A stretch of 64,000 bases of DNA. Origin: Escherichia phage SP27. The DNA is taken from the sequence record LC494302.1; one strand, written 5' to 3'. Within the stretch, counting starts at the first letter, position 1; each line of letters opens with the position of its first letter. This document shows, piece after piece, positions 8,316 to 49,337 of the stretch. The translations under genes were made by a program, and so were the position numbers. The notes below the pieces were generated by a model. The model saw only the letters and a list, made by a program, of their open reading frames with translations. It was not told where the DNA came from and did not search any database.

Positions 8316-8347
8316 ACTTACATCAACTACTGAATGAGGGTTACAAA

Positions 8348-19173: not shown

Positions 19174-19179
19174 GTTTTA

Positions 19180-19260: not shown

Positions 19261-19261
19261 T

Positions 19262-19289: not shown

Positions 19290-19322
19290 ACTTACATCAA
19301 CCACTGATAAGGAAACATAAAA

Positions 19323-26045: not shown

Positions 26046-26242
26046 AAATGCGTATTTTAAATAAAGAAGAATATCAATCACTGTTACGTAAAAACTTCAC
26101 AAAGATTTATAATACAGACACACACGTAGAACGAATGGAGTTATACCTTTTGATTACTTTGGGAACTAACTATCAGGAAAGATGGGTGATTCAATATATG
26201 GATACATTGAAAAATAAAATATTGTCCACGAGGAAACAATGA
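26042..26242 (+). CDS. Fam-B protein
   Basis: 66 aa; ATGA overlap; LGTNYQERWVIQYMDTLKNKI. Confidence 0.85.
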   Translation: MKMRILNKEEYQSLLRKNFTKIYNTDTHVERMELYLLITLGTNYQERWVIQYMDTLKNKILSTRKQ

Positions 26243-26448
26243 AAACTATAACACGAACCCAATCATACGGTCTTATCTTGAAATACATGGACTTAATGGT
26301 GGATATCAGCAAAGACCTTCCTAAAACTGAAATTGAAGTTGCAAGAGCAGAGATCCGCATGTTGGCTGTACTGAACACAAACCATCAGGAAGATTATGTT
26401 GAAGAATGGATTCGATTTTTAATTCAAGATATAAAGAGTAAATTATGA
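26239..26448 (+). CDS. Fam-B protein
   Basis: 69 aa; ATGA overlap; LNTNHQEDYVEEWIRFLIQDIKSKL. Confidence 0.85.
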   Translation: MKTITRTQSYGLILKYMDLMVDISKDLPKTEIEVARAEIRMLAVLNTNHQEDYVEEWIRFLIQDIKSKL

Positions 26449-26657
26449 TTTTTTTAACACCAGAAGAATATAAGAAACGTTTCAATTCCGCACAGGGTGA
26501 AATCTTACTTATATACCTTTCAAATGCAGACCTTAACTTATCAAGGGTATTAGAAAAAGATTTACTTATGGGTGCATTCCTTGATACAGACTTTCAGGTG
26601 TATTATGTAGGGGAATACTTAATTGCACTCCAGAATTACATTAAGAGTAAACTATGA
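26445..26657 (+). CDS. Fam-B protein
   Basis: 70 aa; ATGA overlap; LDTDFQVYYVGEYLIALQNYIKSKL. Confidence 0.85.
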   Translation: MIFLTPEEYKKRFNSAQGEILLIYLSNADLNLSRVLEKDLLMGAFLDTDFQVYYVGEYLIALQNYIKSKL

Positions 26658-26866
26658 ATAGCATTAACTCAAATCTATATACCGAACGCGTCGCGGCCAG
26701 ACAACTTGAAATTCTCATAGTATATGAAGAGACTGATGATTTAAACTTAGCATTAGTATTGGAAAATGATATACTATTGGGTGCATTCCTCGGCACAGAC
26801 TATCAGGAGCACTTCTTGAATGAGTATATAATTGCACTCCAGAAATACATTAAGAGCAAACTATGA
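26654..26866 (+). CDS. Fam-B protein
   Basis: 70 aa; ATGA overlap; LGTDYQEHFLNEYIIALQKYIKSKL. Confidence 0.85.
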   Translation: MNSINSNLYTERVAARQLEILIVYEETDDLNLALVLENDILLGAFLGTDYQEHFLNEYIIALQKYIKSKL

Positions 26867-27081
26867 AACATTTAAGTAATTACGAGAAGAATAAAATTAT
26901 CGTTGCTGCAATAAACAAATATTTTACACTTCCTCACACAGAAGGTTTATGTGTAAGGGAACACAGGATAAACACCACCGATATACGCATGATGGCTGTA
27001 CTGGGGACGAACTTTCAGGAAGAGTATGTTGTTGCACACATAGTTGCCCTCACTGATCTAATAAGGGACAAATGTAAATGA
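26863..27081 (+). CDS. Fam-B protein
   Basis: 72 aa; ATGA overlap; LGTNFQEEYVVAHIVALTDLIRDKCK. Confidence 0.85.
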   Translation: MKHLSNYEKNKIIVAAINKYFTLPHTEGLCVREHRINTTDIRMMAVLGTNFQEEYVVAHIVALTDLIRDKCK

Positions 27082-27335
27082 AACACTTAACTGATGATGA
27101 ATTTGAAACTATAATTCGTAAACTAACCCCCATCACAAGGATAGTCTACGGTGACCCCAGCCTTACATGGAACCAAATGCGAGCTAAAGTTAATGAGCTA
27201 TGGTTGCTGTACTTTATGGGGACTCAATATCAAGATAAGTTTTGCACAGAATATATCGAACAATTAACGAATGTTATACAGGATAAACTAGATGATTATT
27301 TGCTCACAAAACATGAAGACTTTATCAGGAGTTGA
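27078..27335 (+). CDS. Fam-B protein (C-terminally extended)
   Basis: 85 aa; MGTQYQDKFCTEYIEQLTNVIQDKL plus a 14-aa tail beyond the usual stop position. Confidence 0.8.
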   Translation: MKHLTDDEFETIIRKLTPITRIVYGDPSLTWNQMRAKVNELWLLYFMGTQYQDKFCTEYIEQLTNVIQDKLDDYLLTKHEDFIRS

Positions 27336-27564
27336 GTATCAAACTGCCCTATTCTCTTTAATCCATGCCCTTAGAAAAAACAATGCCTTATATGGTGCAC
27401 CTGAAGTGGATGTTATCAACGGTGAACTTTATCTTATGAAATTCATTGGAACAAACTATCAAGATCTGTTCATTCAACGATACTTATCAGCATTAAGAAA
27501 CCAAATCCAATATAAAACCATCAAGGCCAAAAAAGAATGGAATAAACAATGCGACACAGACTAA
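27313..27564 (+). CDS. Fam-B protein
   Basis: Start MKTLSGVEY fits the family N-terminus (alternative ATG 27292); IGTNYQDLFIQRYLSALRNQI. Confidence 0.75.
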   Translation: MKTLSGVEYQTALFSLIHALRKNNALYGAPEVDVINGELYLMKFIGTNYQDLFIQRYLSALRNQIQYKTIKAKKEWNKQCDTD

Positions 27565-27797
27565 ATCACAAAATGTATTGTAAACTATTGCAGACATTGG
27601 CACAGAAACACTATGACACGGTATCTGGAATATTACCCTATGATATCATGCGTTTACTTCACTGTGAGGCCGAGATGCTTGTACTGATGACAGGCACTGA
27701 TAAAAACGCAATTGCCAAATCAATAGATATGTTCATCGAAGCACACTGCCAACACATGAGAACCGAAATCTGGAGGAAAGAGAATGATAATCCTTAA
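27549..27797 (+). CDS. Fam-B protein (divergent)
   Basis: 82 aa; MTGTDKNAIAKSIDMFIEAH. Confidence 0.75.
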   Translation: MRHRLNHKMYCKLLQTLAQKHYDTVSGILPYDIMRLLHCEAEMLVLMTGTDKNAIAKSIDMFIEAHCQHMRTEIWRKENDNP

Positions 27798-27999
27798 TGA
27801 GTATCAGTATCATTGGAGGTTACAAACTATCAAATCAAAAGTGTATAGTATTGTGTTAAACAAATCTATTGCACAAGAGGACAAATGTGTTATAATAGCT
27901 GAAATGAAGTTGGGTGTATTCGTAGGGACAAACTATCAAAACATCTACACTGACGTATTGTTAAGTGCCTTACGTAACAAGGTGGTATCCAAAATATGA
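27784..27999 (+). CDS. Fam-B protein
   Basis: 71 aa; VGTNYQNIYTDVLLSALRNKVVSKI. Confidence 0.85.
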   Translation: MIILNEYQYHWRLQTIKSKVYSIVLNKSIAQEDKCVIIAEMKLGVFVGTNYQNIYTDVLLSALRNKVVSKI

Positions 28000-28214
28000 G
28001 AAATTTACAAGGCTTTGAATACATCAGACTCCTGAAAACATGTGGAAGCAGAAGGAGAATGATATCAAGCGATAAGAGCATCCAAGCTAACCTTAAGCAC
28101 GCACTAGTAACTGAACTCTATGTAGGTGCACTCTTAGGCACAAACTATCAACAAATGTATGTAGATCTATGGATTGACGCTCTACAGAAAGAGGTTAAAA
28201 GTAAATGCAAATGA
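27996..28214 (+). CDS. Fam-B protein
   Basis: 72 aa; ATGA overlap; LGTNYQQMYVDLWIDALQKEVKSKCK. Confidence 0.85.
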   Translation: MRNLQGFEYIRLLKTCGSRRRMISSDKSIQANLKHALVTELYVGALLGTNYQQMYVDLWIDALQKEVKSKCK

Positions 28215-28423
28215 TTAATTTAAGTAAAGACGAATTTTATGTTATACTGGCGAAAACTTATCCAGCACGTAAGGCCGTTTATGATAGTCACATTATTGAA
28301 CCCTCAAAGAAGTTGATTTTAGTAAATGAGATAAAGATGCTTTCAGTCTTAGGAACAAACTATCAAGAGAATGCTGTACTGATGTTAATTGATGCCCTCC
28401 AGAGAGAGGTTAAACGTAAATGA
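28205..28423 (+). CDS. Fam-B protein
   Basis: 72 aa; MQMINLSKDEF; LGTNYQENAVLMLIDALQREVKRK. Confidence 0.85.
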   Translation: MQMINLSKDEFYVILAKTYPARKAVYDSHIIEPSKKLILVNEIKMLSVLGTNYQENAVLMLIDALQREVKRK

Positions 28424-28650
28424 AAATGATTAATTTAACTTACCATGAATATCAAAAACGTTTAAATGCATCCAGAGATATAAGGATTCAAATATTCAAT
28501 AACAAAAAATTGAAACCTGATACCAGAAGAATCAAAATCATAGAAGCCGTGTTGTGTAACTTCCTAGGGACTAACTATCAGGAAGGTAAGGTAGAAAACT
28601 ATCTTATAGAACTCATGAATAGTATTGAAAATAAATGTAAGGGTAATTAA
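28420..28650 (+). CDS. Fam-B protein
   Basis: 76 aa; ATGA overlap; LGTNYQEGKVENYLIELMNSIENKCKGN. Confidence 0.85.
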   Translation: MKMINLTYHEYQKRLNASRDIRIQIFNNKKLKPDTRRIKIIEAVLCNFLGTNYQEGKVENYLIELMNSIENKCKGN

Positions 28651-28654
28651 CATG
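28621..28654 (+). repeat. 34-nt direct repeat, copy 1 (3' end of 28420..28650 plus next start)
   Basis: AGTATTGAAAATAAATGTAAGGGTAATTAACATG, identical to 28890-28923. Confidence 0.9.
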
Positions 28655-28891
28655 AAAATGATTAAATTATCTCAAGCAAAATATAAAGAACGCCTGGTAA
28701 AAATTGCACCTGGACTTAATGAAATCCATCACGGAGAAGTCATTAAACACGGAAATAAGATGATTATGAAACTTGAGTTAAAGGTGGGTGCATTCATAGG
28801 AACAAACTATCAGGAGTATTATGTAGATGAATACATAATCGCACTTAAGAGATACATTGGAAGAAAACTATATCTACAAACTAAAGAATAG
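28652..28891 (+). CDS. Fam-B protein
   Basis: ATG 28652 (track start 28625 is TTG); MKMIKLSQAKY; IGTNYQEYYVDEYIIALKRYI. Confidence 0.8.
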   Translation: MKMIKLSQAKYKERLVKIAPGLNEIHHGEVIKHGNKMIMKLELKVGAFIGTNYQEYYVDEYIIALKRYIGRKLYLQTKE

Positions 28892-28923
28892 TATTGAAAA
28901 TAAATGTAAGGGTAATTAACATG
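28890..28923 (+). repeat. 34-nt direct repeat, copy 2 (noncoding remnant of a gene 3' end plus next start)
   Basis: Identical to 28621-28654 but here it lies downstream of a different stop codon. Confidence 0.9.
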
Positions 28924-29184
28924 CAAATGATCAATTTAAGTAAAGATGAATATACCGAGCGTATGACAAAAATTACGCACAAACGTAATACAATCTATCA
29001 CAACCCAGAAATTCAACACAGTAAGAAAATGATTATGATGCGTGAGTTAAAGATGGGTGTATTCTTAGGAACAAACTATCAAGATACAGAAGTAAATCGC
29101 TTAATCGCGGAGTTACTACTGGAAATCAGAGGTAAGCTGTACTTTCATCAAATGACCCAACCACTGAGGTGTACTGATCGATGA
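28921..29184 (+). CDS. Fam-B protein
   Basis: ATG 28921 (track start 28894 lies in the repeated remnant); MQMINLSKDEY; LGTNYQDTEVNRLIAELLLEI. Confidence 0.8.
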   Translation: MQMINLSKDEYTERMTKITHKRNTIYHNPEIQHSKKMIMMRELKMGVFLGTNYQDTEVNRLIAELLLEIRGKLYFHQMTQPLRCTDR

Positions 29185-29432
29185 ATGCGATGAATATTGT
29201 GAATAACATCAGATTAGCAGAAAGATTTGATAGAATTGGGGAAGCACTGAGAAGATACGATAAAGAATATGGTCATTTGAGCTTTTCTATAGAAAAGAGA
29301 TATGAACTTGAAGCAGAGTTTAAAATGCAGAGTCTCTTAGGCACACAGTATCAAAACCAATATATTCAAACTTGGATTGATTGTTTAATCCAGACAATTT
29401 ACGTAAGAAACATTAAATGCAAAATGAAATGA
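29181..29432 (+). CDS. Fam-B protein
   Basis: 83 aa; ATGA overlap; LGTQYQNQYIQTWIDCLIQTI. Confidence 0.85.
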   Translation: MNAMNIVNNIRLAERFDRIGEALRRYDKEYGHLSFSIEKRYELEAEFKMQSLLGTQYQNQYIQTWIDCLIQTIYVRNIKCKMK

Positions 29433-29671
29433 TATACTTAACACATGATGAGTTAACAGAAAGACTAGATAAATCCAAAAGACTTACAAATAAACTTCCT
29501 CACAACACAAATCAAACCCCAGCAGAAAGGAGTGCAGAAGTTTTATTCCAAAGATTACCATACCTTCTTGGAACTGATAGGCAAGAGTATCACATTGAAC
29601 GTATAATTAAATATCTCAAAATTACTATTAAGGAAAAAGTAAATGCAAATGAAATACTTAACAGACGATGA
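29417..29671 (+). CDS. Fam-B protein
   Basis: 84 aa (alternative ATG 29429); LGTDRQEYHIERIIKYLKITIKEK. Confidence 0.8.
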   Translation: MQNEMIYLTHDELTERLDKSKRLTNKLPHNTNQTPAERSAEVLFQRLPYLLGTDRQEYHIERIIKYLKITIKEKVNANEILNRR

Positions 29672-29894
29672 GTTAAAAGAACGACTAATTAAATCCAGAA
29701 AACTTACAAATCAACTTCCAAACGACACAAACAAGTCACATGCCGAAAGGAGTGCAGAAGTTTTATACATTCAACTCATGTACTTTCTTGGCACTGACAG
29801 ACAAGAGTATTACATTGAAAGTATGCTTCGATATCTTAAATTCTCTATAAAGGAAAAGATACATGCTCAAGAATTTAAAAATCCTAACAGTTAA
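29643..29894 (+). CDS. Fam-B protein (close paralog of 29417..29671)
   Basis: 83 aa; LTDDELKERL; LGTDRQEYYIESMLRYLKFSIKEK. Confidence 0.8.
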   Translation: MQMKYLTDDELKERLIKSRKLTNQLPNDTNKSHAERSAEVLYIQLMYFLGTDRQEYYIESMLRYLKFSIKEKIHAQEFKNPNS

Positions 29895-30105
29895 TGAATA
29901 TCATACGATTGTAATGAAAACTAATAGTGCAATTTCTAAAAAATCAAACCCCAAGTACATACTGGAACACACATTTGAAGAACGTCAATTAGCTTTAGTT
30001 GAAGCAAAACTTCTTGCACTCCTAGGGACTAACTATCAAGAAGAATACATCAGAAAACTAATATACCTTTTAACTAAACATATAAGAAAAAGAAAAAATG
30101 CATGA
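29863..30105 (+). CDS. Fam-B protein
   Basis: 80 aa; LGTNYQEEYIRKLIYLLTKHI. Confidence 0.85.
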   Translation: MLKNLKILTVNEYHTIVMKTNSAISKKSNPKYILEHTFEERQLALVEAKLLALLGTNYQEEYIRKLIYLLTKHIRKRKNA

Positions 30106-30332
30106 AACACTTGACAGATGATGAACATGGGCTTATAGTAATGGATGTAATCAACATCGAATACAAAAAGTTGATACGCTACCGTTGTTATGAAGATAAG
30201 CAACTCGTTCTAGCAGAACAGAAGTTGTTTCGACTCTTAAACACAAACTTCCAAGCACAATACGAAGAATCGTATATGTACCTTTTGGCGAGGAAAGCAA
30301 AAAGAGATTATGAAAATTTTAAGCAAAGGTGA
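30102..30332 (+). CDS. Fam-B protein
   Basis: 76 aa; ATGA overlap; LNTNFQAQYEESYMYLLARKA. Confidence 0.8.
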   Translation: MKHLTDDEHGLIVMDVINIEYKKLIRYRCYEDKQLVLAEQKLFRLLNTNFQAQYEESYMYLLARKAKRDYENFKQR

Positions 30333-30525
30333 TTCAGTAATATTACTTATAGAGAGTTCAAGTAAATTCTTAAACATAACACTGTCTGATATAGATGAAG
30401 ATGACAAAGAAGTACTGAGAGCAGATTTAAGAGTACTGTTACATATCGGAACAAACCTACAAGAAGAATATGTAGAATGCTACATCAATGAACTTAAAGA
30501 ATCAGTACTGAGAAAATGCAAATGA
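30310..30525 (+). CDS. Fam-B protein
   Basis: 71 aa; IGTNLQEEYVECYINELKESVLRKCK. Confidence 0.85.
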   Translation: MKILSKGDSVILLIESSSKFLNITLSDIDEDDKEVLRADLRVLLHIGTNLQEEYVECYINELKESVLRKCK

Positions 30526-30743
30526 AAATCATTACCGATGCAGAATACCTAACAATCATAAATGGACTGTTTTTGAAGCTCTTCGTCATTAACACATCAG
30601 ATATACCAGATATGGATAAAATTATTAAGAGAAATGAAGTCTATGTTCTAGCTACCCTTGGAACGAACTATCAAGAACACGACATTAAAGATTATATTAA
30701 TACACTTAAACGAGCGATTGAACTAAAATGCCAAAACCACTAG
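30516..30743 (+). CDS. Fam-B protein
   Basis: 75 aa; LGTNYQEHDIKDYINTLKRAIELKC. Confidence 0.85.
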   Translation: MQMKIITDAEYLTIINGLFLKLFVINTSDIPDMDKIIKRNEVYVLATLGTNYQEHDIKDYINTLKRAIELKCQNH

Positions 30744-30943
30744 GAACAGCAGAATACATTGAACTAATGGCATTACACTTCTCATCCTTTCAGAAACTTA
30801 GGCGAGAATCAAAGAATGATTTAGAATATACCATCAGAGGTTCCGATTTAAGAATGCTTCTCACCCTAGACACAGATTCCCAAGAGCGATTTGTCAATGA
30901 GCATATTAGAGCACTTTTAATGGAAATTCAAAGTAAACTATGA
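30728..30943 (+). CDS. Fam-B protein
   Basis: 71 aa; LDTDSQERFVNEHIRALLMEIQSKL. Confidence 0.85.
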   Translation: MPKPLGTAEYIELMALHFSSFQKLRRESKNDLEYTIRGSDLRMLLTLDTDSQERFVNEHIRALLMEIQSKL

Positions 30944-31155
30944 AGATAATATCAAACCAAGAGTACTTGGCACTATTCAGGAAGAATAATCACAAATATA
31001 TGGCACTTGATTCAAGAACTGATATAAGTGAACTTGAAAAAAATCTTTTGCGTTCAGAGATGATAGTACTGACACTCTTAGGAACACAGCATCAAGAGAG
31101 AACTGTTAATTCACACATAGGTATTCTTATACAGATTGTACTGGAAAAGATATGA
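30940..31155 (+). CDS. Fam-B protein
   Basis: 71 aa; ATGA overlap; LGTQHQERTVNSHIGILIQIV. Confidence 0.85.
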   Translation: MKIISNQEYLALFRKNNHKYMALDSRTDISELEKNLLRSEMIVLTLLGTQHQERTVNSHIGILIQIVLEKI

Positions 31156-31373
31156 GAATCATAACACAACAAGATATTCTTAAGTTCACAAGGGTTCATG
31201 CATCTGAATTTGATGCTATATTATCAAAAAGTTACAACAACCCTTATACAGAAGATGTACATTACAGTGAATTATGGATGTATATACTTTTAGGTACAAA
31301 TAAACAAGAGCAAGCAGTACAGAAGTATTTGACAGCTTTACGTGATGCTACTGCTAATGGAGTATGTGTTTAA
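31152..31373 (+). CDS. Fam-B protein
   Basis: 73 aa; ATGA overlap; LGTNKQEQAVQKYLTALRDA. Confidence 0.85.
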   Translation: MRIITQQDILKFTRVHASEFDAILSKSYNNPYTEDVHYSELWMYILLGTNKQEQAVQKYLTALRDATANGVCV

Positions 31374-32322: not shown

Positions 32323-32351
32323 TTGACAGTACTTTTCTTTAGTGCTATAGT
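32323..32351 (+). promoter_or_regulatory. sigma70-like promoter inside Fam-C array
   Basis: TTGACA 32323-32328 /17/ TATAGT 32346-32351. Confidence 0.7.
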
Positions 32352-35794: not shown

Positions 35795-36279
35795 AGTTCA
35801 GCTTAGATGCTGCATTTAAATATGTTCACAAGATAGAAACAATATACAGTACATTATGTGCAATAAAATCAGTAACAGAAGAGCTTGATGTTGGTGAAAA
35901 ATATCAGGTATGGAATAATACATTTTTAAATAAAGAACGTTGCTCTACGGGGTTTAATATTTTAACATTTAATCCCAGCAATTGTTACCCAGAGAAGCAT
36001 GAACGTTATCCGAATGACGACATGTGGTTTGAGTACAAAGAAGATTGTGATATGTCGTTCATTGAAGTTCCTGATGATTTTAATGCACAAGATTTAACAG
36101 ACGAGTGGTGGTTCCAGCAGAATTTAGTCCACGATGATATTGATTTATTTTTTTATGTAGTATTTAAAATGCTTTATCACAACAATATAGTACAAGATAG
36201 TGTATTTTTTTCATGTCTATATATTGATGATTTGTACAATGAAATTCAAATCAACATGCCCAGAACGCCTGTATCGTAA
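35773..36279 (+). CDS. Fam-C protein
   Basis: 168 aa; core TDEWWFQQNLVHD. Confidence 0.85.
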   Translation: MQYMYDLEFSLDAAFKYVHKIETIYSTLCAIKSVTEELDVGEKYQVWNNTFLNKERCSTGFNILTFNPSNCYPEKHERYPNDDMWFEYKEDCDMSFIEVPDDFNAQDLTDEWWFQQNLVHDDIDLFFYVVFKMLYHNNIVQDSVFFSCLYIDDLYNEIQINMPRTPVS

Positions 36280-36295
36280 GATATGGGCTTTTTTC
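36258..36295 (+). terminator. weak terminator-like hairpin
   Basis: GCCCA 36258-36262 / TGGGC 36284-36288 (21-nt loop) then TTTTTT. Confidence 0.4.
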
Positions 36296-36304: not shown

Positions 36305-36333
36305 TTGACATAGAAGACCAAAGCTGTTATCAT
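36305..36333 (+). promoter_or_regulatory. sigma70-like promoter inside Fam-C array
   Basis: TTGACA 36305-36310 /17/ TATCAT 36328-36333. Confidence 0.65.
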
Positions 36334-39842: not shown

Positions 39843-40038
39843 TTTTAGAGATGTTGCTAAGGAGAAGTTCAAGTGCAGTTTAGATTACGGTTTAAATGAT
39901 TTTCTTACATGCACAATGTACAGGAATGATGATTATGAGCAATCCGTAATTTCGTTGCACAGATATTTCGAAATAATTTACGCAAGATATCTTAGAAGGT
40001 TAGATGGGATAGGGGATTGGAATTATGATTACGTTTGA
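39835..40038 (+). CDS. hypothetical protein (array-embedded, no core)
   Basis: 67 aa; MNNFRDVAKEKFK. Confidence 0.7.
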   Translation: MNNFRDVAKEKFKCSLDYGLNDFLTCTMYRNDDYEQSVISLHRYFEIIYARYLRRLDGIGDWNYDYV

Positions 40039-40234
40039 AGAGCCGGAAGTGTTAAGTTCGCATAGTATTAAGGGTTTTGAATACATGATGGATTTGATTT
40101 TGAAGGATACATATTTGGTTCAGAGTGTAGATAATACGGTACACCGAGTATTGAATTTATACGAGATGACGAGTCGAAGGCTTTGTGCTATGAAAAGGAT
40201 TGAAGAAATCAAGCTTTCTAGGCTGAATAAATAG
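40025..40234 (+). CDS. hypothetical protein (array-embedded, no core)
   Basis: 69 aa; MITFEEPEVLSSH. Confidence 0.7.
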   Translation: MITFEEPEVLSSHSIKGFEYMMDLILKDTYLVQSVDNTVHRVLNLYEMTSRRLCAMKRIEEIKLSRLNK

Positions 40235-40254
40235 AGACGTTTCATTTTTACAGG

Positions 40255-40382
40255 CCGCTGGGGGGGGTCAAAAAAATTTCCGCTGAAAAACATGCTAAGG
40301 TATATGTTTAATATAAAGTTTTATATTGTGTTTTTCAGAGTACAGTTCATGTTTCCTGAAACAAAAAATACCCCGCCCCCGC
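40255..40382 (+). other. G-run and C-rich tracts able to pair across about 100 nt of AT-rich spacer
   Basis: GCCGCTGGGGGGGGTC about 40255-40270 versus CCCCGCCCCCGC 40371-40382; only GC-rich islands in the array. Confidence 0.4.
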
Positions 40383-40433
40383 AACGTGCTCCTTATATTG
40401 GAGTTTACCTTATTAATTATAGTAGAGATTAAG

Positions 40434-40811
40434 ATGGAAATAAAATATAATGAATTTTGTGCAAGGACATGGATGTACACTGGTGAGTTAGTTACGCACT
40501 CTAACTTATACAAGGGTGATTTAAACTACGCTAGGGACAAGATTTTAAAGTACTGGAATGCTGACTTTTATTTGATGGATTTTAGTACTGGGTTTCATGG
40601 GATATCTATCGAGATGCCGGACTATACAGTACTTGATGATGCTGCACTGTTCCAGGAGGCATTAGTATTTGATAAGAAGTACATCTGTACATTAGAAGAG
40701 ATGATTGAATTACAGCGTAGAATTAAATGTATTCACAGGGAATGTATAGATATCTGGTGCAGTACTGGTGAGGCCGATTTCTGGAAATTTTTTAATCTAG
40801 GAGAAGAGTGA
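40434..40811 (+). CDS. Fam-C protein (PDYT subgroup)
   Basis: 125 aa from MEIKYNEF (track start 40326 is TTG, in the noncoding gap); core MPDYTVLDDAALFQEALVFDKKY. Confidence 0.75.
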   Translation: MEIKYNEFCARTWMYTGELVTHSNLYKGDLNYARDKILKYWNADFYLMDFSTGFHGISIEMPDYTVLDDAALFQEALVFDKKYICTLEEMIELQRRIKCIHRECIDIWCSTGEADFWKFFNLGEE

Positions 40812-41167
40812 TGGAATTTGATTTTTTAATATCAGTACATACTTTCAAGCACAGTTATCAGTACTTTTGTAATTTAAACAAAGGTGATTTAATGCACAGT
40901 GCGAATGAGTATATTCATTACACTCAGGGTAAATTTACATTCATTGATTACAGTTCATTACAGTATCCACACCAAGATATGCCGGACTATACATTAATGG
41001 ATACCGCAGAACTATTCCAAGAATCATTAGTATTTGATAAGAAGTACTTGTGTACATTTGAAGAAGTTATTGCAATACAAAATGAAATGAAAGAGTATGC
41101 TGCTTTGCATAAACCCAATTCAAGTATTAATCAAGAATACAAATTCAATTTAGGAATTCAAGAATGA
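40811..41167 (+). CDS. Fam-C protein (PDYT subgroup)
   Basis: ATG 40811 overlapping the upstream TGA by 1 nt (track GTG 40808); core MPDYTLMDTAELFQESLVFDKKY. Confidence 0.8.
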   Translation: MEFDFLISVHTFKHSYQYFCNLNKGDLMHSANEYIHYTQGKFTFIDYSSLQYPHQDMPDYTLMDTAELFQESLVFDKKYLCTFEEVIAIQNEMKEYAALHKPNSSINQEYKFNLGIQE

Positions 41168-41523
41168 CATATGATTATTCTATGTACTATTATAAGTTAC
41201 CTAAAGGATGGGACTTGTGCTGTAATCTTATTAAGGGCGACTCGGAACATGAGTTGAGTTTATATATGCATTACAAAGATTCTTGTTTTAAATTTATTCA
41301 TGTATCACATGACGACTATGACTATGAATCTGAGAGTCTTATAGATTATACAGTACTGGACGATGGCGAACTATTTCAGGCTGCATTAGTGTTTGATAAG
41401 AATAAGTACTCCTGTACATTTGAAGAAATGGTTTCTTTGCAAAATGAAATGAAGAGATTTGAAAAAGAAAACGTATTTAATCCATCCCCATCAAGAACGA
41501 ATAATTATTATTTCAATATATGA
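41164..41523 (+). CDS. Fam-C protein (PDYT subgroup)
   Basis: 119 aa; ATGA overlap; core LIDYTVLDDGELFQAALVFDKNKY. Confidence 0.85.
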   Translation: MTYDYSMYYYKLPKGWDLCCNLIKGDSEHELSLYMHYKDSCFKFIHVSHDDYDYESESLIDYTVLDDGELFQAALVFDKNKYSCTFEEMVSLQNEMKRFEKENVFNPSPSRTNNYYFNI

Positions 41524-41532
41524 GATTATAAA

Positions 41533-42024
41533 ATGACATTACAGAGTTCATTGGAAAAAGCAAAGAAGATTCATGAGTACATGAATATGGCAAAAGAAGG
41601 TTCAGTTTACGGTGTTTTCAAAGACACAAGTACTCAATATTATGTACCGGATAACCTCCTTTATAATGACTGCTCAGATACAGAAACGTGCGTACTGGAT
41701 ACAGAAACGTGTGTACTGGATACCGACCCTAATGATTATGAATGCTACATTAATATGCATAATGAGTACATGGTCTATATTAATGATACAGATACCATCA
41801 ACAGTACTGACAGCGATTCCAATGACATTATAATTCCGAGTGAAGTACTGGAAGGTCCGTGGGATAGTGAAGAGTATTACTTCCAACAAAGTACTGTATA
41901 TGATAATGAAGTACTTGATGTTATTATAATTATGTGGTACTTTAAAAGTATTGGTTCTGGGAACTTCTATTTCGATTACAAATACGTAAAGAAAACTGTA
42001 GATAACGGTATTAACAGGGGTTGA
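41533..42024 (+). CDS. Fam-C protein (GPW subgroup)
   Basis: 163 aa; MTLQSSLEKAKKIHEY; core GPWDSEEYYFQQSTVYD; contains the DTETCVL x2 duplication. Confidence 0.85.
   Translation: MTLQSSLEKAKKIHEYMNMAKEGSVYGVFKDTSTQYYVPDNLLYNDCSDTETCVLDTETCVLDTDPNDYECYINMHNEYMVYINDTDTINSTDSDSNDIIIPSEVLEGPWDSEEYYFQQSTVYDNEVLDVIIIMWYFKSIGSGNFYFDYKYVKKTVDNGINRG
41677..41718 (+). repeat. in-frame 21-nt tandem duplication
   Basis: GATACAGAAACGTG(C/T)GTACTG x2 (41677-41697, 41698-41718) encoding DTETCVL DTETCVL. Confidence 0.9.
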
Positions 42025-42025
42025 A

Positions 42026-42496
42026 ATGAGTTTAGAAAGAGCATTAGAGATTGCGAAGTTAATTGATTTATGCAGCAAAGAAATTGTAGCAAATTGTCTT
42101 AATGGATATCTATTCAAGGAAGGTAAATCTTATTGTCGAATGAGATACGATGACAGTAGTGAGTACATTCACATGTATGAAGAAAACTTAGATTCTTCTG
42201 AAACAACACTCAATGGGTGTGATGTTAATTTGGAAGATAATTACATGTACTTCTGTCGTGATGCTGATATTTTAATACAAGATTCTGACATTATATCTGG
42301 TGCAGCAGAGAAACATCTTCCGTATTCAGTACTGGATAATGACTGGGGAAGTGAAGAGTTCTACTTCCAGCAGAATACTATCTACGAGGAATATGTGCTT
42401 GACAAGCTTGTCATTCTGTGGTACTTTAATAATACCGATTGTCCTAGCTTCTATCTGGACTTGGATCTACTACGAGTTATTAAAGAGGATATATGA
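42026..42496 (+). CDS. Fam-C protein (GPW subgroup)
   Basis: 156 aa; MSLERALEIAKLIDL; core DNDWGSEEFYFQQNTIYE. Confidence 0.85.
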   Translation: MSLERALEIAKLIDLCSKEIVANCLNGYLFKEGKSYCRMRYDDSSEYIHMYEENLDSSETTLNGCDVNLEDNYMYFCRDADILIQDSDIISGAAEKHLPYSVLDNDWGSEEFYFQQNTIYEEYVLDKLVILWYFNNTDCPSFYLDLDLLRVIKEDI

Positions 42497-42936
42497 GTTT
42501 AGCAAGTGCACTTAAACTGGCACACAAAATACATCACTTCCACGATAACATAAAAAGTGGTTTCTATGGTGATAAAGTAAGTGCATTTGGTAATGAGTAT
42601 TATCTATCAGGTATAAAGACATACTCTGATGATATTTTACTTATGGGCCATGATAAAGACAATACTATACAGTACTCTTCATGTAGTCAATATACTAGTT
42701 TTTTTGTATATATTCCAGGTACTAAGATTACGTTTGACACATCAAATACACCTGTTGACTTCGGGGTACTTGATGGCCCGTGGGGTACTGAAGAGTATTA
42801 CTTCCAACAGAGTCTTATTTTTAACCAAGAAATGCTTGATTCCTTGGTTGTTTTGTGGTACTTTAAGGAATTGAAGTTTGAACCATTTTTTCTTGACTGG
42901 GGAGCATGTGAATATTTAAGTACAGGGGATTTGTAA
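42493..42936 (+). CDS. Fam-C protein (GPW subgroup)
   Basis: 147 aa; ATGA overlap; MSLASALKLAHKIHHF; core GPWGTEEYYFQQSLIFN. Confidence 0.85.
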   Translation: MSLASALKLAHKIHHFHDNIKSGFYGDKVSAFGNEYYLSGIKTYSDDILLMGHDKDNTIQYSSCSQYTSFFVYIPGTKITFDTSNTPVDFGVLDGPWGTEEYYFQQSLIFNQEMLDSLVVLWYFKELKFEPFFLDWGACEYLSTGDL

Positions 42937-43427
42937 TGTCGTTACAAAGTGCATTGAAAGAAGCAAAGAAGATTCATGAGTACATGATTATGGTACAGGA
43001 AGGTTCAGTACCTGGGGTGTATAAAACATCTGATACTGAATTTTTTGTAAAAGACCGTGACGATTATGACGAGTCCGAGATATGTGCAGAAACATTAGTA
43101 CTGCACACTGATACTGGTGACAGTGATAACTGTGAATATCATATGTACAATCAGTACATTAGTTATTGCCGTAATGAAGATATTACCATCTACAACACAG
43201 ATAGTGATGCTGATGACACTATCATTCCTTATTCAGTACTGGAAGGACCGTGGGATAGTGAAGAATATTACTTCCAGAATAGTACGTTGTACAATGAAGA
43301 AGAACTGGATGTTATTGTGATTATGTGGTACTTTAAAAGTATTGGTTCTGATAGTTTCTATTTCGATTATGAATACGTAGAGAATACTGTAGGGGAAGAT
43401 AATGTCATTACAAAGTGCACTGGATAA
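42936..43427 (+). CDS. Fam-C protein (GPW subgroup; close paralog of 41533..42024)
   Basis: 163 aa; MSLQSALKEAKKIHEY; core GPWDSEEYYFQNSTLYN. Confidence 0.85.
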   Translation: MSLQSALKEAKKIHEYMIMVQEGSVPGVYKTSDTEFFVKDRDDYDESEICAETLVLHTDTGDSDNCEYHMYNQYISYCRNEDITIYNTDSDADDTIIPYSVLEGPWDSEEYYFQNSTLYNEEELDVIVIMWYFKSIGSDSFYFDYEYVENTVGEDNVITKCTG

Positions 43428-43845
43428 AGCAAAAGAACTACAGGTATATATTGAAGATATCAAGGCTGGGAAGTTCGAAGAAGTATACAAAGCCGAGAAT
43501 GGTAACTACTACAAGGATAGTGATTTTACCACAACTACAGTTATTCTTGGGCTGAATTCCAAAAGTCCCGCAGATTTTTCACAATACAATCCAGATGCAG
43601 AATTTATCAGTTATGCTTATGGTGGTGAAATCCGTTTTTATAATCGCAGCAGACCTTTAAAATTGAACTTTGAAGTACTGAAAGGTCCGTGGGATAGTGA
43701 AGAGTATTACTTTCAGAATAGTACTTTGTATGATGATGAAGTACTAGATACTTTAGTTATTATGTGGTACTTTAAAAGTATTGATAGTACAAGATTTTAT
43801 TTGGATTATGAATATGTACGTGAAGCATATAAGGGCAAACGATGA
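43402..43845 (+). CDS. Fam-C protein (GPW subgroup)
   Basis: 147 aa; MSLQSALDKAKELQVY; core GPWDSEEYYFQNSTLYD. Confidence 0.85.
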   Translation: MSLQSALDKAKELQVYIEDIKAGKFEEVYKAENGNYYKDSDFTTTTVILGLNSKSPADFSQYNPDAEFISYAYGGEIRFYNRSRPLKLNFEVLKGPWDSEEYYFQNSTLYDDEVLDTLVIMWYFKSIDSTRFYLDYEYVREAYKGKR

Positions 43846-44156
43846 AATTCTTATACAGTATTCAGTACATTCCTGGTACAATTAGTTTAATGTATTTCTT
43901 CGATCATGATAATTTCCAGCACCTTGCCGTTAGAAGATGTAATGAATCTTTAATGATTGAATATCTTCACGATTGTGATTATATTCCTGACTTCCTTGAA
44001 TGTGATTACAGAGATGATCATGAAACATTTCTTTTTCAGGAATCACTTGTATGGGATAAGAGAATTAATTTTTATGCTTTACTTGAGATACAAAAACAAG
44101 TGAAGTACTACTGGGATTACTTAATTACCCAAGAATATATAGAGATTGAAATATAA
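43842..44156 (+). CDS. Fam-C protein
   Basis: 104 aa; ATGA overlap; core DHETFLFQESLVWD. Confidence 0.85.
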   Translation: MKFLYSIQYIPGTISLMYFFDHDNFQHLAVRRCNESLMIEYLHDCDYIPDFLECDYRDDHETFLFQESLVWDKRINFYALLEIQKQVKYYWDYLITQEYIEIEI

Positions 44157-44629
44157 TGTACGAAAGTGATCTTAAGCACGCTGAGGAATTAGTTAATATA
44201 GTAAAGTTCTTTCAAAATAATGTAAAGTACTTAGACGACAAAGGGGCATATATTAGTACTATAAGTGTTGGTACAGATATTCTAGGATTAGGTAATGAAT
44301 ATAAGTACGAGTCCCATGATTATGATTTGGAATTCAAGTACTTCGAATGGAATCCTGGAACTTTCTATTCAATCGATGAAAGTGGGAAATATTTTGAATT
44401 CACCGAAGAAGACGTACTATTCTTAAATTCAGAAGATGCTTACTTCCAGTACAGTACTATATACCCAAATAGTGCATTAAGAGCTTTAGTAGTTTTTAAT
44501 GCATTTCTGAAAGAGAACTTTAATAATTCTATATTCATTGATTTAAATTATGTATATGAACTAAATCAGGTGATATATATGGAGTCCAGAAAAAATGAGT
44601 TACGAAAGTGCAATCAAGAAAGCAAATGA
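44156..44629 (+). CDS. Fam-C protein
   Basis: 157 aa; TAATG junction; core NSEDAYFQYSTIYP. Confidence 0.85.
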   Translation: MYESDLKHAEELVNIVKFFQNNVKYLDDKGAYISTISVGTDILGLGNEYKYESHDYDLEFKYFEWNPGTFYSIDESGKYFEFTEEDVLFLNSEDAYFQYSTIYPNSALRALVVFNAFLKENFNNSIFIDLNYVYELNQVIYMESRKNELRKCNQESK

Positions 44630-45041
44630 TATTCTAAAAGTTGTTAAGTTCTTCAAAGAAAATCCTGAATACGTAGATGATGAACGAAGAGAAGTTTCTA
44701 ATGGCACGAAGATTACAATTGATTCTTTATTTGACACTAGCAACAACAACTGTAGTACTATTGAATTAGCATACGATTATATTTCATTGAACAGAAAATA
44801 TGATGAAGTTACGATAGAGCGTCATGAGAATGAAGAATCTTTTAAAATTTCTGATATTTTATCTCTGAGTACAGAAGAAGGGTACTTCCAGGGAAGTACT
44901 GTTTATAATGAAGGAACACTAGACAATCTATGTACATTTAGTGTACTATATCAGAAGTCAGTACTGGATATATTTTATCTAGACACTGAAAAACTTGATA
45001 GGTTAGTTGATTTCGTTACTATAGAAGAGGCATCCGTTTGA
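44595..45041 (+). CDS. Fam-C protein
   Basis: 148 aa; MSYESAIKKANDILKVVKFF; core STEEGYFQGSTVYN. Confidence 0.85.
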   Translation: MSYESAIKKANDILKVVKFFKENPEYVDDERREVSNGTKITIDSLFDTSNNNCSTIELAYDYISLNRKYDEVTIERHENEESFKISDILSLSTEEGYFQGSTVYNEGTLDNLCTFSVLYQKSVLDIFYLDTEKLDRLVDFVTIEEASV

Positions 45042-45574
45042 GAAAAATTAACATTAATGATTATGATGCATTACAAGATTTATCAAAAAAGATTCGCACT
45101 ATCGTACCAGTACTGAAGAAATGCAGTACTGGATTAATCGATCCTAGTACTGTTGTTAATGAGAAGTACAATTTTCATTATGTATTACAGGGTACTGGGG
45201 CATTCCAGAAGTGTGAGGTGCGTGAGAAACACGTAATTGATACATCATTGTTTTCTATTGGTGCACCTATGTCGAATAATACTATTTTCCTGGATGACGC
45301 AGGAAATATTCAACAATTAACATTTAAGAAAAGGAAAAAGAACAATAACATTGGTGTGTACGCGATGAAGTGGGGTCAACCTGATTTGAAGCGTGAAATT
45401 CACATCCCTAAGTACAATTACAATTCATTTGAAGAACAGTGCTTTCAACTATCGTGTACTGACCCTGACTATGCTATCATTCAGTTCTATATGGAATTGC
45501 AGATAGCATTTAACAGTAATTTGTATATTAACTTATTGGCGATTAACATTGATGAAGTATTCAAAAACATTTAA
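45038..45574 (+). CDS. Fam-C protein (TTG start)
   Basis: 178 aa; TTGA overlap, no nearby in-frame ATG; core SFEEQCFQLSCTDP. Confidence 0.65.
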   Translation: MRKININDYDALQDLSKKIRTIVPVLKKCSTGLIDPSTVVNEKYNFHYVLQGTGAFQKCEVREKHVIDTSLFSIGAPMSNNTIFLDDAGNIQQLTFKKRKKNNNIGVYAMKWGQPDLKREIHIPKYNYNSFEEQCFQLSCTDPDYAIIQFYMELQIAFNSNLYINLLAINIDEVFKNI

Positions 45575-45770
45575 TCGAATTGAATACATGAGAACTGTGA
45601 GTGCAGTGTGGGACATATGGTTCACTACTAAACCAAAAATGGATTACCATGACTTTAAGCTCTTGTTCTTCGTTGGCTCTAACAAACAGGATGTTGCAAT
45701 GAAGGGTTATATTCAGCACTTACAGGAACTAATCCAGAAGAGAATATATGAAAATAATAGACCAAAATGA
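45552..45770 (+). CDS. Fam-B-like protein (stray copy)
   Basis: ATG 45552 (track TTG 45549); FVGSNKQDVAMKGYIQHLQELIQKRI. Confidence 0.7.
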   Translation: MKYSKTFNRIEYMRTVSAVWDIWFTTKPKMDYHDFKLLFFVGSNKQDVAMKGYIQHLQELIQKRIYENNRPK

Positions 45771-45939
45771 CATTGCTAAACTATTCAATATATATTCTAC
45801 TAGAATGATGCAAACAGACTCATATAGTACTGAATTCAAAGAGTTGAAAGTACTGATGTACTTAGGAACCCAATACCAAGAACAAGTTATTTTAGAATAT
45901 ATTAATTCGTTGAAGAAGGATATCCGTTATGTACGATGA
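45748..45939 (+). CDS. Fam-B-like protein (stray copy)
   Basis: 63 aa; LGTQYQEQVILEYINSLKKDI. Confidence 0.8.
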   Translation: MKIIDQNDIAKLFNIYSTRMMQTDSYSTEFKELKVLMYLGTQYQEQVILEYINSLKKDIRYVR

Positions 45940-46489
45940 TTTAGATCTTGCGTTTGAACGTATGGTAATTTTAATGCAATGCAATGAAATGCATGAAACA
46001 ATCCGTCGCACCAAAGGGATTGAATATACAAGTAAACTATTCTCATACGAAAGTCGTCGAGGGATGGATCATTTTTACTGCACTGATTGTTCAAAGTTTT
46101 CAGTACTGAAATATTATCATCCTACTGTTTCCAATAATAGTTTAATATCCACATATGACGGTGATCTGTTTAGTGTAATGTATGACACATTACATCCATC
46201 AATTTCAATCTATAAAGATTGCGATAGTAGTTTATCGTATATAATTGAAGATTACTTATCTCCTAATACTGAAGAGAATATTTTTCAGAACAGTGTGTTG
46301 CATGATGAATTAAGTATAAAATGCATCTATATGTTCAATAAGTTAAAAGAGTACGCCGATAATAATTACTTCATTGATGATTTAGCGGTATTGTCTGTTT
46401 CCGTTTTTAATACAAATGATATTGATATGAAATACTATAATGAGATTTGTAAAGTACATAATATGTATAAGGAACTATTATGCCAATAA
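45929..46489 (+). CDS. Fam-C protein
   Basis: 186 aa; core NTEENIFQNSVLHD. Confidence 0.85.
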   Translation: MYDDLDLAFERMVILMQCNEMHETIRRTKGIEYTSKLFSYESRRGMDHFYCTDCSKFSVLKYYHPTVSNNSLISTYDGDLFSVMYDTLHPSISIYKDCDSSLSYIIEDYLSPNTEENIFQNSVLHDELSIKCIYMFNKLKEYADNNYFIDDLAVLSVSVFNTNDIDMKYYNEICKVHNMYKELLCQ

Positions 46490-47782: not shown

Positions 47783-48319
47783 ATGTTAGATGAAAAAATG
47801 AACAATGGAACACAATATAATCATCTTAAGTTAGATACATTCGAATCAGCTATCAGTACTGCACAAGATATAATTGATATTATCAAGTTCATTAAAGAAA
47901 ATAAGTTCAAATGTTTGAAAATACTAAATCGTTCAATGTACCGTGATAACAATATTCATGTATCAGTACGTAGACCGAAAGATAAAGAAAGTGGGAGAGA
48001 TTTCTATAACAACAGTGAGCAGTTCGAATGTGAATATGATCCAGAATTCAGAGGCGGTTTCATGTGTTACAGTATAAAGGATACCTCACACATTGAGATA
48101 CGTTCATCGAAAGGTGGCATACGTACATTAGAGTTCATTGATATAGTTTTAAATCAGGAATACTACTTTCAACTATCATTATTGTTTCCTGCATACGATT
48201 TAGGAGTTCTATTCATGTATAAGTACTTTTATGAGCACTGGAATGAAGACTTCTATCTGGACTTAGAAGATTACCAATTAGTTTGGAAAGAAATGGTAGA
48301 ACTTCGCAATCCCTCTTGA
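47783..48319 (+). CDS. Fam-C protein
   Basis: 178 aa from MLDEKMNNG; SD GAGG 5 nt upstream (track start 47735 is GTG inside upstream gene); core LNQEYYFQLSLLFP. Confidence 0.8.
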   Translation: MLDEKMNNGTQYNHLKLDTFESAISTAQDIIDIIKFIKENKFKCLKILNRSMYRDNNIHVSVRRPKDKESGRDFYNNSEQFECEYDPEFRGGFMCYSIKDTSHIEIRSSKGGIRTLEFIDIVLNQEYYFQLSLLFPAYDLGVLFMYKYFYEHWNEDFYLDLEDYQLVWKEMVELRNPS

Positions 48320-48368
48320 CACCCACCGATTCTTTGTGATATAATCCCTTTATATTAATTGTAAAGGG
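48316..48368 (+). promoter_or_regulatory. extended -10 promoter + 5' hairpin inside Fam-C array
   Basis: TTGACA 48316-48321 /18/ TGaTATAAT (TATAAT 48340-48345); hairpin CCCTTTA...TAAAGGG 48346-48368. Confidence 0.65.
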
Positions 48369-48378
48369 TTATAACACA

Positions 48379-48855
48379 ATGTCCAAAGACCTATCATTTA
48401 GCAATGCACAAAAAATAGCAAAAGACATTATCAGGGTTTATAAATTCCTTGCGAATGTTACTGAAGATTTTTCCGTGGGGGAACATAAAGTTATTAAACG
48501 AAATGGATACCTTTCATTTATGGATGGGTTACTCTATAGTTCAGATGAATCAACTTGTAGCATTAGAGTACTTGATGAAGTACCAAGTGGTGATTTTATT
48601 TCATACCATTTTCCAAGTTCAGATAATTTCAAATACTACAATCATCTTCTTATAAATGAAGCATTTAATACGATTGTAATTAACACTGAAGAAGAGTTCT
48701 TCCAGTACAGTACTGTGTATCCAGAGAGGATTGTTTTCAGTTCAGTGATTTTAACAGCCCTTAAAAATGAACTAAATTCCGATAGTGATCATTTCTACTT
48801 GGACCTGAACAATGTCGATTGTATTATTGAGTACCTGGAGAAAAATGGTTTATGA
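48379..48855 (+). CDS. Fam-C protein
   Basis: 158 aa; core NTEEEFFQYSTVYP. Confidence 0.85.
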   Translation: MSKDLSFSNAQKIAKDIIRVYKFLANVTEDFSVGEHKVIKRNGYLSFMDGLLYSSDESTCSIRVLDEVPSGDFISYHFPSSDNFKYYNHLLINEAFNTIVINTEEEFFQYSTVYPERIVFSSVILTALKNELNSDSDHFYLDLNNVDCIIEYLEKNGL

Positions 48856-49337
48856 TTACTACAGAATATGATTACTATGGTGTTTTAGAATTTACAGAAA
48901 ATATCTATCGCATTGCAAAGGAGTTCAGAAGTCCTAAGCCTTTTGGTGGAATGCCTTTTGGTGGTATGTTTCAATACGATGAGTTCAGTTCATCTAAAGG
49001 AAGACTAGCATTTACTAATGGTAGAGGTAATCAAATCTACGCGGAGTACTTTGATGATAATGACTTTCATTACAAAGCCGAATACATTTCATATTGCCCT
49101 GGGTCTGATTTGAAGATTAATATTGATACATTTAGAGAAGCAGTATTTGTTCCGTATAATGATTTAGTCTTCATGTCAGAGGAAATGTACTTTCAGGGTT
49201 CTTGTATTCATGATGTAAAAGTACTTAATGCTATGTTATTTTATGGTGCACTACTTAATCATTACAAATACAATCAACGATTCTTTTTAGATTTAGCAGT
49301 CTACTATAAATGCGTGGATTATTTGAATGCAAAATAA
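48852..49337 (+). CDS. Fam-C protein
   Basis: 161 aa; ATGA overlap; core MSEEMYFQGSCIHD; contains the PFGGM x2 duplication. Confidence 0.85.
   Translation: MITTEYDYYGVLEFTENIYRIAKEFRSPKPFGGMPFGGMFQYDEFSSSKGRLAFTNGRGNQIYAEYFDDNDFHYKAEYISYCPGSDLKINIDTFREAVFVPYNDLVFMSEEMYFQGSCIHDVKVLNAMLFYGALLNHYKYNQRFFLDLAVYYKCVDYLNAK
48939..48968 (+). repeat. in-frame 15-nt tandem duplication
   Basis: CCTTTTGGTGG(A/T)ATG x2 encoding PFGGM PFGGM. Confidence 0.9.

Follow-up and report, generated by a model that had tools for sequence, protein, structure and literature searches.

The FQ-motif gene array of Escherichia phage SP27: probably an old birth-and-death family reshuffled by recombination

Results

Genes and layout of the locus

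The window analysed here is a 64,000-nucleotide stretch of Escherichia phage SP27 (LC494302.1), an Asteriusvirus, that is, a 121Q/PBECO4-like jumbo coliphage with a genome of ~350 kb. The genes in question are eight small genes at 40434–43845, which an original prediction, made from the sequence alone, had divided into two families of near-identical neighbours and taken as the sign of an accordion-like locus still gaining and losing copies. The eight genes were found to belong to one large tandem array, termed here the FQ-motif superfamily, and the locus is probably a multigene family of long standing, evolving by birth and death and reshuffled by recombination, rather than an accordion of recent amplification. 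Genes are referred to by coordinate and the features are collected in Table 1.

To establish the extent of the family, the open reading frames (ORFs) of the window were compared all against all by BLASTP, and both flagged families already fell in one 23-gene cluster. An iterated hidden Markov model (HMM) search of the same ORFs converged on 37 members, arranged head to tail and all on the plus strand. The members shared the acidic core sEEx(Y/L)FQxS(L/T)v(Y/H)D. In an independent MAFFT alignment, F113 and Q114 were invariant in 37/37 sequences, at a mean column identity of 13%. Of the motifs originally proposed for the flagged genes, the core of the three-gene group was confirmed as MPDYT...LFQ..LVFDKKY.CT(F/L)EE, while the N- and C-terminal motifs of the five genes at 41533–43845 held as a consensus, the exact strings being present in only two to three of the five. 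All eight flagged genes matched PHROG families (9317, 15629, 12674 and 13866; function unannotated) with E-values of 1e-50 to 1e-65. PHROGs thus divide these genes among several families, whereas the HMM search and the fold evidence presented here place them in one superfamily. The FQ proteins were acidic, with a median isoelectric point of 4.7 compared to 6.25 for the remaining proteins of the window.

An AlphaFold2 model of the 42936 protein, calculated with the paralogue alignment as the only input, reached a predicted local distance difference test score (pLDDT) of 89.5 and a predicted template modelling score of 0.84. The modelled alpha/beta fold comprises an N-terminal helix, a seven-stranded sheet and C-terminal helices, with the FQ pair predicted to lie inside a short helix. 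No significant match to the FQ proteins was obtained among Pfam-A or NCBIfam profiles or among solved structures. A full HMMER profile scan of 1.84 billion representative proteins returned 157 clusters only (clustered at 50% identity). Ten of these were looked up, and all seven that carried a source name were from Asteriusvirus phages or from E. coli contigs of about 350 kb. A protein word search with 42936 returned 23 clusters, all Asteriusvirus-like, and no function was gained from it. Fold-level relatives, uncharacterised and several per genome, were found in BFVD for RaK2, GAP32, fHe-Yen9-03/04 and Serratia phage BF, so that the fold seems to be a property of the wider RaK2-like clade. Published accounts of this phage group say little or nothing on the arrays: that of CBB mentions 22 paralogous ORFs, and those of Sharanji and fEgEco12 none.

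The position of the arrays relative to the genome end was determined by comparison with fEgEco12, which has a direct terminal repeat of 20,993 bp (PMC13070987). Mapping of 2500–7500 onto fEgEco12, together with the published repeat length, placed the terminal repeat at about 5–26 kb of the window. It is followed directly by an array of basic genes, Fam-B (25.8–31.4 kb), and then by the FQ array.

For comparison with sister phages, 40000–46000 was searched by megablast, giving 35 records, all of them Asteriusvirus-like jumbo phages of E. coli or Salmonella (121Q, PBECO4, phAPEC6 and others). The best match was BAU.Micro_ELP-22 at 98.3%. Presence and absence of structural variants was counted over these 35 records, and repeats were searched for in the window and 14 sister loci.

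Table 1. Coordinates of the arrays, genes, repeats and promoters discussed in the text (positions in the window)
Feature	Coordinates	Strand	Remarks
Fam-B array	25848–31373	+	About 24–26 small basic proteins, LGTNYQ motif; begins just past the terminal repeat
269-bp tandem unit	28593–29081	+	1.8 copies, 77% identity; covers Fam-B genes 28652–28891 and 28921–29184
34-mer, copy 1	28621–28654	+	C-terminus of gene 28420–28650 plus ribosome-binding site and ATG of the next gene
34-mer, copy 2	28890–28923	+	Spacer with ribosome-binding site and ATG of gene 28921; bounds the 269-bp unit with copy 1
FQ-motif superfamily array	31607–59507	+	At least 37 genes at HMM E<1e-3; ~8 further genes with the motif and weaker scores
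Sigma-70-like promoter	32323–32351	+	11/12 matches + TG; in one of the array's few intergenic gaps
Sigma-70-like promoter	36305–36333	+	11/12 matches + TG; just past terminator-like hairpin 36267–36288
Short-form FQ member (MPDYT subfamily), 125 aa	40434–40811	+	PHROG 15629, E=1.5e-54
Short-form FQ member, 118 aa	40811–41167	+	First ~85 nt (40809–40893) are the direct repeat flanking the 529-bp unit of sister genomes; single copy in the window
Short-form FQ member, 119 aa	41164–41523	+	Motif, HMM and PHROG match
Long-form FQ member, 163 aa	41533–42024	+	Alternative cassette in 8 sister records
21-nt tandem duplication, in frame (DTETCVL x2)	41677–41718	+	20/21 bases identical; variable acidic loop of 41533
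Long-form FQ member, 156 aa	42026–42496	+	Motif, PHROG match, tree
Long-form FQ member, 147 aa	42493–42936	+	Motif, PHROG match, tree
Long-form FQ member, 163 aa	42936–43427	+	Closest paralogue of 41533 (58% aa); structure model made from it
Long-form FQ member, 147 aa	43402–43845	+	Two deep allelic types; 97% identical in Turkey3, 69% in PBECO4 and 121Q
Sigma-70 promoter	48316–48345	+	Perfect 12/12 + TG; gap 48319–48379
15-nt tandem duplication, in frame (PFGGM x2)	48939–48968	+	14/15 bases identical; FQ gene 48852–49337

Divergence of the copies and selection

The age of the copies was assessed from their divergence. Genes 41533 and 42936 had been described as close copies. Their DNA was 71.3% identical over 502 nt, with a synonymous divergence (dS, Nei-Gojobori) of 1.08, and two other genes lie between them. 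The remaining pairs of the five-gene family showed 29–44% protein identity, and those of the three-gene family 35–38%, so the description of near-identical neighbours did not hold. Over the whole window the best gene pair by full-length DNA identity reached ~71% and was non-adjacent. Among the paralogue pairs compared for dS, all except 41533/42936 were saturated at synonymous sites or nearly so.

Comparisons between orthologues in 121Q, PBECO4 and ph0011 gave dS values mostly of 0.03–0.8. For ten genes compared against these three genomes, the ratio of non-synonymous to synonymous divergence was 0.06–0.45, indicating that each copy is maintained by purifying selection. A neighbour-joining tree of long-form members from the window, 121Q, Turkey3, ph0011, A4 and Turkey5 clustered them by orthologue rather than by genome, the distant A4 included. 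Together with the paralogue dS of at least 1, this clustering places the duplications before the sampled radiation of the genus.

Near-identical gene copies were found in neither the window nor the 14 sister loci. With the exception of an 85-nt junction repeat described below, the 14 loci contained no repeat of at least 70 nt at 90% identity or more, and no 100-nt segment over which a gene pair exceeded ~88%. The data therefore gave no support to recent or ongoing amplification in tandem, as originally proposed. The features expected of birth-and-death evolution were all found, namely deep divergence of tandem paralogues, grouping by orthologue, loss, gain and replacement with remnants, and purifying selection; the identical or near-identical adjacent DNA copies expected of an accordion were not.

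Structural variation among sister phages

Sister genomes differed in copy number and content and carried recombination scars, confirming that the arrays are not frozen. Comparison with related genomes, which the original prediction had itself proposed as a check, gave a divided answer: all neighbours were deeply divergent, but copy number and order were not identical, so the original hypothesis is supported in part.

One difference in a single gene was in the Fam-B array. The identical 34-mer reported at 28621–28654 and 28890–28923 was exact, and these were the only two matches at up to three mismatches, compared to none expected. Phage UB (GenBank species Asteriusvirus PBECO4) was found to lack gene 28652–28891 and to have a single 34-mer, while PBECO4 has the gene and both 34-mers. 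The two genomes differ by precisely 269 bp, with the limits exactly at the two 34-nt direct repeats, which bears out the earlier interpretation of the 34-mer as a scar of recombination. Gene 28652–28891 was also missing from Ecwhy_1 and, judging by how long the matched spans are, may be missing from WPEC5, vB_Ec-M-J and TH47 as well. The 34-mer had further been described as coding in one place and a noncoding leftover in the other. Copy 1 is indeed coding, and copy 2 lies past the TAG stop of 28652–28891, in the spacer before the ATG of 28921, because the homologous sequence upstream is read in another frame. Copy 2 is not a functionless leftover, however, since it still provides the AAGGG ribosome-binding site of gene 28921.

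The second variant was a 529-bp unit between 40434 and 40811, which was present in 12 of the 35 records (eleven distinct genomes) and absent in 22. The latter carry only a single target of 80–83 nt, and the window is likewise uninterrupted. The unit contains a 123-aa family member and a chimeric fragment ORF (53–74 aa in phAPEC6, Turkey3 and 121Q), the first 28 codons of which correspond to the 5' end of gene 40811. The 85-nt direct repeats that flank the unit were 96% identical to each other in phAPEC6, 94% in Turkey3 and 83% in 121Q. The inserted patch matched phage A4 at 95% identity, over the 3' end of its gene 364 and all of its gene 365. In A4 both genes sit in the 47-kb slot, whose syntenic counterpart in the window is gene 47088, although gene 365 itself is only 28% identical to 47088. 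Microhomology was present at both junctions of the patch (GATTTGAT on the left, TGATGGA on the right). Judged from its sequence, the 529-bp unit arose when a member that had already diverged was copied to an ectopic position, and it qualifies as a true junction fossil. The one clear gain observed had thus copied a divergent member from another slot, contrary to the proposed gain by duplication of a neighbour. In the window itself, a six-frame HMM search found no decayed FQ-family fragments outside the called genes, and hence no FQ-family junction fossil.

Further variation took the form of replacement. In the slot of 41533, eight records have another short-form member (45% identical to 40811) and a 61-aa ORF. 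Phage A4 has both the 61-aa ORF and the 41533 orthologue, which suggests differential loss. In the slot of 44156, genomes of the PBECO4 type have an unrelated 102-aa gene. Orthologue dS against PBECO4 ranged from 0.03 to saturated in adjacent genes, and the protein identity of genes syntenic with A4 ranged from 96% down to 26%. These abrupt shifts from gene to gene point to frequent recombination among co-circulating lineages.

In-frame micro-duplications

The two tandem duplications that had been reported as perfect were confirmed to be real, in frame and identical at the protein level. At the DNA level each contains one synonymous mismatch (TGC/TGT in the 21-nt repeat and GGA/GGT in the 15-nt repeat). 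The 21-nt duplication was present in ELP-22, PBECO4, 121Q and phAPEC6 and absent only from JP4 (six genomes checked). The same C/T difference between its two copies occurs in the window, PBECO4, phAPEC6 and 121Q, which shows the duplication to be old. The 15-nt duplication was present in five other genomes, including ELP-22, PBECO4, Turkey3 and CMSTMSU, and absent from phAPEC6, ph0011 and JP4. Both are therefore polymorphic between isolates. Both also fall in loop regions, and the region of the 42936 model aligned to the 21-nt duplication has a low pLDDT (mean of 63 for block 41–50). Short in-frame repeats in surface loops are gained and lost, potentially via replication slippage.

Promoters and absence from virions

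The best promoter matches within the FQ array lie in its gaps (Table 1). It is this placement, and not the overall number of sites, that is suggestive. In the virion proteome of phAPEC6 (electrospray ionization tandem mass spectrometry), 62 proteins were reported, none of them between gp348 and gp548 (PMC7247149). The orthologous locus of phAPEC6 is gp423c–gp454c, and its products were hence undetected in the virion. On this ground, a role of the FQ proteins as virion 'hair' or decoration proteins was rejected.

The FQ proteins may be non-structural effectors that act early, in host takeover or in counter-defence, with a separate target for each paralogue. This proposal is based on the position of the array, its promoters, the absence from virions, the charge and diversification of the proteins, and the variability between strains.

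Other observations on the FQ genes

The cores of 44595–45041 (TEEGYFQGS) and 48852–49337 (SEEMYFQGS) have the form E-E-x-Y-F-Q-(G/S), which fits the recognition pattern of tobacco etch virus (TEV) protease, E-x-x-Y-x-Q-(G/S). The possibility that the EExYFQ(G/S) core is a protease site was considered and the resemblance taken as coincidence, as the core sits in the conserved fold core (the short helix) and no evidence of a matching protease was found. It is nevertheless a practical caveat when expressing FQ proteins with TEV-cleavable tags.

Two small genes at 45552–45939 lie inside the FQ array, one of which, 45748–45939, groups with the basic LGTNYQ proteins of Fam-B; the FQ and Fam-B families are thus interleaved there. 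Counterparts were seen at the same place in A4 and Turkey5. Two annotations inside the array look like errors. In phAPEC6, gp447c (the orthologue of 40434; locus coordinates 3097–3474) is annotated as 'amidohydrolase 3' and lacks Pfam support, and in the A4 array, A4_348 (178 aa; locus coordinates 6474–7010) is annotated as 'DNA ligase'.

Many family members have been deposited under the name 'Escherichia coli', encoded on contigs of 345–360 kb. Such contigs indicate that complete Asteriusvirus genomes are common in assemblies of E. coli isolates, whether as the result of a carrier state, of pseudolysogeny or of contamination. These genomes constitute a large untapped sample of the pangenome.

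Terminal repeat region

The segment 5500–25400, probably a copy of the terminal repeat, contained, on the plus strand only, eleven perfect sigma-70 promoters (TTGACA-N16/17-TATAAT) and about ten with the sequence TTGCAA-N16-TATAAT. Promoter-like sites numbered 92, compared to 66.8 +/- 7.1 in shuffled sequence. A 12-bp stem-loop that encloses the -35 box (AAAGGGATTGACTCCGGTCAGTCCCTTT, then GCTATTATAT) occurs in four copies, at 14984, 19019, 22011 and 24267. The segment also contains repeated intergenic elements that are 80–93% identical, for example 8142–8333 and 19117–19307.

The commonest 8-mer of the whole window was the palindromic octamer CAGTACTG, with 65 copies compared to 0.65 expected. 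Its extended consensus is TTT-CAGTACTG-AAA, with examples at 4743–5964, 22459, 24429, 41802, 42327 and 43234. Twenty-five copies are intergenic and 40 are coding, in all three frames, and 13–14 lie in the non-coding region at 4.7–6.0 kb. In several early promoters the octamer occupies the spacer, immediately before the -10 box. It has a similar density (0.6–1 per kb) in the FQ-array loci of sister phages and is rare in Fam-B. A literature search for it returned primer sequences only. The octamer could be a site for a regulator or a condensation protein, a promoter-class element, or something else.

At 4548–6013 there is a non-coding region of ~1.4 kb with short tandem repeats at 4663–4909 (period 10) and 5628–5727 (periods 24 and 32) and many CAGTACTG sites. 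On fEgEco12 this region maps to where the terminal repeat begins, and it may represent the terminus of the genome or a region for packaging or replication. Two more tandem arrays, at 1027–2171 and 2771–4153, each with six paralogues of ~60 aa, were revealed by BLASTP clustering upstream of the terminal repeat. Megablast of 2500–7500 returned 73 records, some from beyond Asteriusvirus (Phapecoctavirus, Shigella, Acinetobacter and Erwinia phages), indicating that some short element there has a wider distribution. No transfer RNA genes were found in the window.

Discussion

Taken together, the divergence and variation data favour, as the probable explanation of the locus, an old multigene family with birth-and-death evolution, whose members are reshuffled by recombination. 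Present change consists of slow birth and death combined with cassette exchange. Single members are deleted between short direct repeats at gene junctions, such as the 34-mer in Fam-B and possibly the 85-nt 5' end of 40811, and others are swapped for different family members in the same slot. Sometimes two switches at microhomologies place a copy of a member in another slot, and a chimeric gene fragment is left behind. The array may grow mainly by capture of already divergent alleles or paralogues from co-infecting relatives, and this would explain a variable copy number without near-identical neighbours.

Three other explanations were considered. The first is that there is no current duplication or deletion at all, and that homologous recombination merely swaps pre-existing cassettes between co-infecting relatives. 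It would account for the dS values of 0.03 to saturated across adjacent genes of one genome pair, for the alternative cassettes in the slots of 41533 and 44156, and for the pattern of the 15-nt duplication, which cuts across otherwise similar genomes. It is nonetheless unlikely. The 269-bp difference of UB, being limited exactly by the 34-nt repeats, has the signature of intramolecular deletion or unequal exchange, and the chimeric ORF, duplicated 85-nt target and microhomology junctions of the 529-bp unit indicate illegitimate recombination and not allelic exchange.

The second is a strict genomic accordion, in which the locus is now expanding by duplication of neighbours, with young copies side by side and a copy number that fluctuates within the population. 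Copy number and content do vary among the sister phages, junction scars are present and the in-frame micro-duplications are polymorphic. Moreover, segmental amplification is a known route of counter-defence in T4-like phages, as for T4 tifA (PMC9391042) and for amplification driven by SegB (PMC13096335); in poxviruses an accordion has been described for K3L (Elde et al. 2012, as cited in PMC13359090). The FQ array resembles these cases in that the tandem copies of a large virus change when short homologies recombine, and in that a link to counter-defence has been proposed. In accordions, however, near-identical copies arise within a few passages and then collapse, whereas the FQ copies have dS values of at least 1, are individually conserved and are common to the sampled phages of the genus. 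No pair in the window exceeds ~71% full-length DNA identity, the paralogue dS is 1.08 or more, and no pair in the 14 sister loci exceeds ~88% over 100 nt apart from the 85-nt junction repeat. The tree is by orthologue, the 21-mer with its substitution is common to the window, PBECO4, phAPEC6 and 121Q, and the supposed close copies are not adjacent. The genomes available already largely refute a strict accordion, and it is considered very improbable.

Concerted evolution, in which gene conversion and not protein selection keeps the GPWDSEEYYFQ... block and the 34-mer similar, is marginally less credible still: the C-terminal third of 41533, 42936 and 43402 has a dS of ~0.6 while the N-terminal part is saturated, DNA identity in the C-terminal block is 81–88% over 113–148 nt, and 34/34 identity inside a 77% identical unit has an estimated chance of roughly 0.03, but 0.6 remains a large dS, the block holds the invariant structural core (FQ and the following helix), paralogues do not cluster by genome and no conversion tracts longer than ~150 nt were seen.

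Several points also weigh against the preferred reading of an old, recombining birth-and-death family with an early role. The lower dS in the C-terminal third of the three genes could reflect some gene conversion, as could the perfect 34-mer within its otherwise divergent unit. The comparisons of copy number are of consensus genomes, that is, between isolates rather than inside one phage population. The directions of gain and loss are drawn by parsimony from few genomes, themselves mosaic. The promoter scan of the array region gave 108 sites compared to 124.8 expected from shuffled sequence, and the suggested role in takeover or counter-defence draws only on position, promoters, charge, virion absence and variability.

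Large DNA viruses of eukaryotes offer the nearest parallel. The multigene families (MGF) 110, 360 and 505 of African swine fever virus (ASFV) and the terminal host-range families of poxviruses consist of dozens of divergent tandem paralogues near the genome ends or terminal repeats. Their copy number varies between isolates by deletion and insertion, and they are non-structural and linked to host range and immune evasion. The FQ array is similar in lying near the terminal repeat of a large DNA virus, in its variable copy number and in being presumably non-structural, with a presumed link to host range and immune evasion. It differs in belonging to a bacterial virus, in its unrelated protein family and fold, and in that its role is deduced only indirectly.

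Among phages, the hyperplastic regions of T4-type genomes, reportedly described by Arbiol et al. in 2010, are said to be shuffled via repeated promoter-early stem-loop (PeSL) cassettes. These regions are likewise made up of early small ORFs whose content varies by recombination at short repeats at gene boundaries, and in the window the stem-loop promoters at 14984, 19019, 22011 and 24267 resemble PeSL elements. In T4, however, the shuffled genes are mostly unrelated, whereas the FQ genes all belong to one superfamily, and the repeats at which they recombine are formed by gene 5' ends or junctions rather than by promoter cassettes. As a very large expansion of a single family in a jumbo phage, the FQ array, with 37 or more copies per genome, is comparable in size to the lineage-specific expansion of ~35 zinc-ribbon genes in Bacillus phage G, which was termed unprecedented (PMC7824862). 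The genes of phage G are predicted DNA binders or transcription factors, in contrast to the FQ proteins, which are acidic, without recognisable domain and different in fold and host.

A broader interpretation is put forward only tentatively, and its being correct is regarded as possible rather than probable. The FQ superfamily would represent an undescribed fold present in about 40–45 copies per genome (~8% of the genome), rivalling the largest single-family expansion in phages. It would form a modular early arsenal for counter-defence or host range, grown by capture of divergent alleles and not by duplication of neighbours, and would be the phage counterpart of the terminal families of ASFV and poxviruses.

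Although jumbo phages are candidates for therapy, no function is known for more than 80% of Asteriusvirus genes. Some 28 kb of the genome can now be assigned to one diversified family that is undetected in virions, probably early and variable between isolates. The array thereby provides a concrete block of candidate host-range or anti-defence genes. The routes by which it changes, namely deletion between junction repeats, replacement of cassettes and ectopic microhomology-mediated capture of divergent members, account for a copy number that varies without any young duplicates being observed. A tandem family accompanied by small repeats need not, therefore, mean a currently active accordion.

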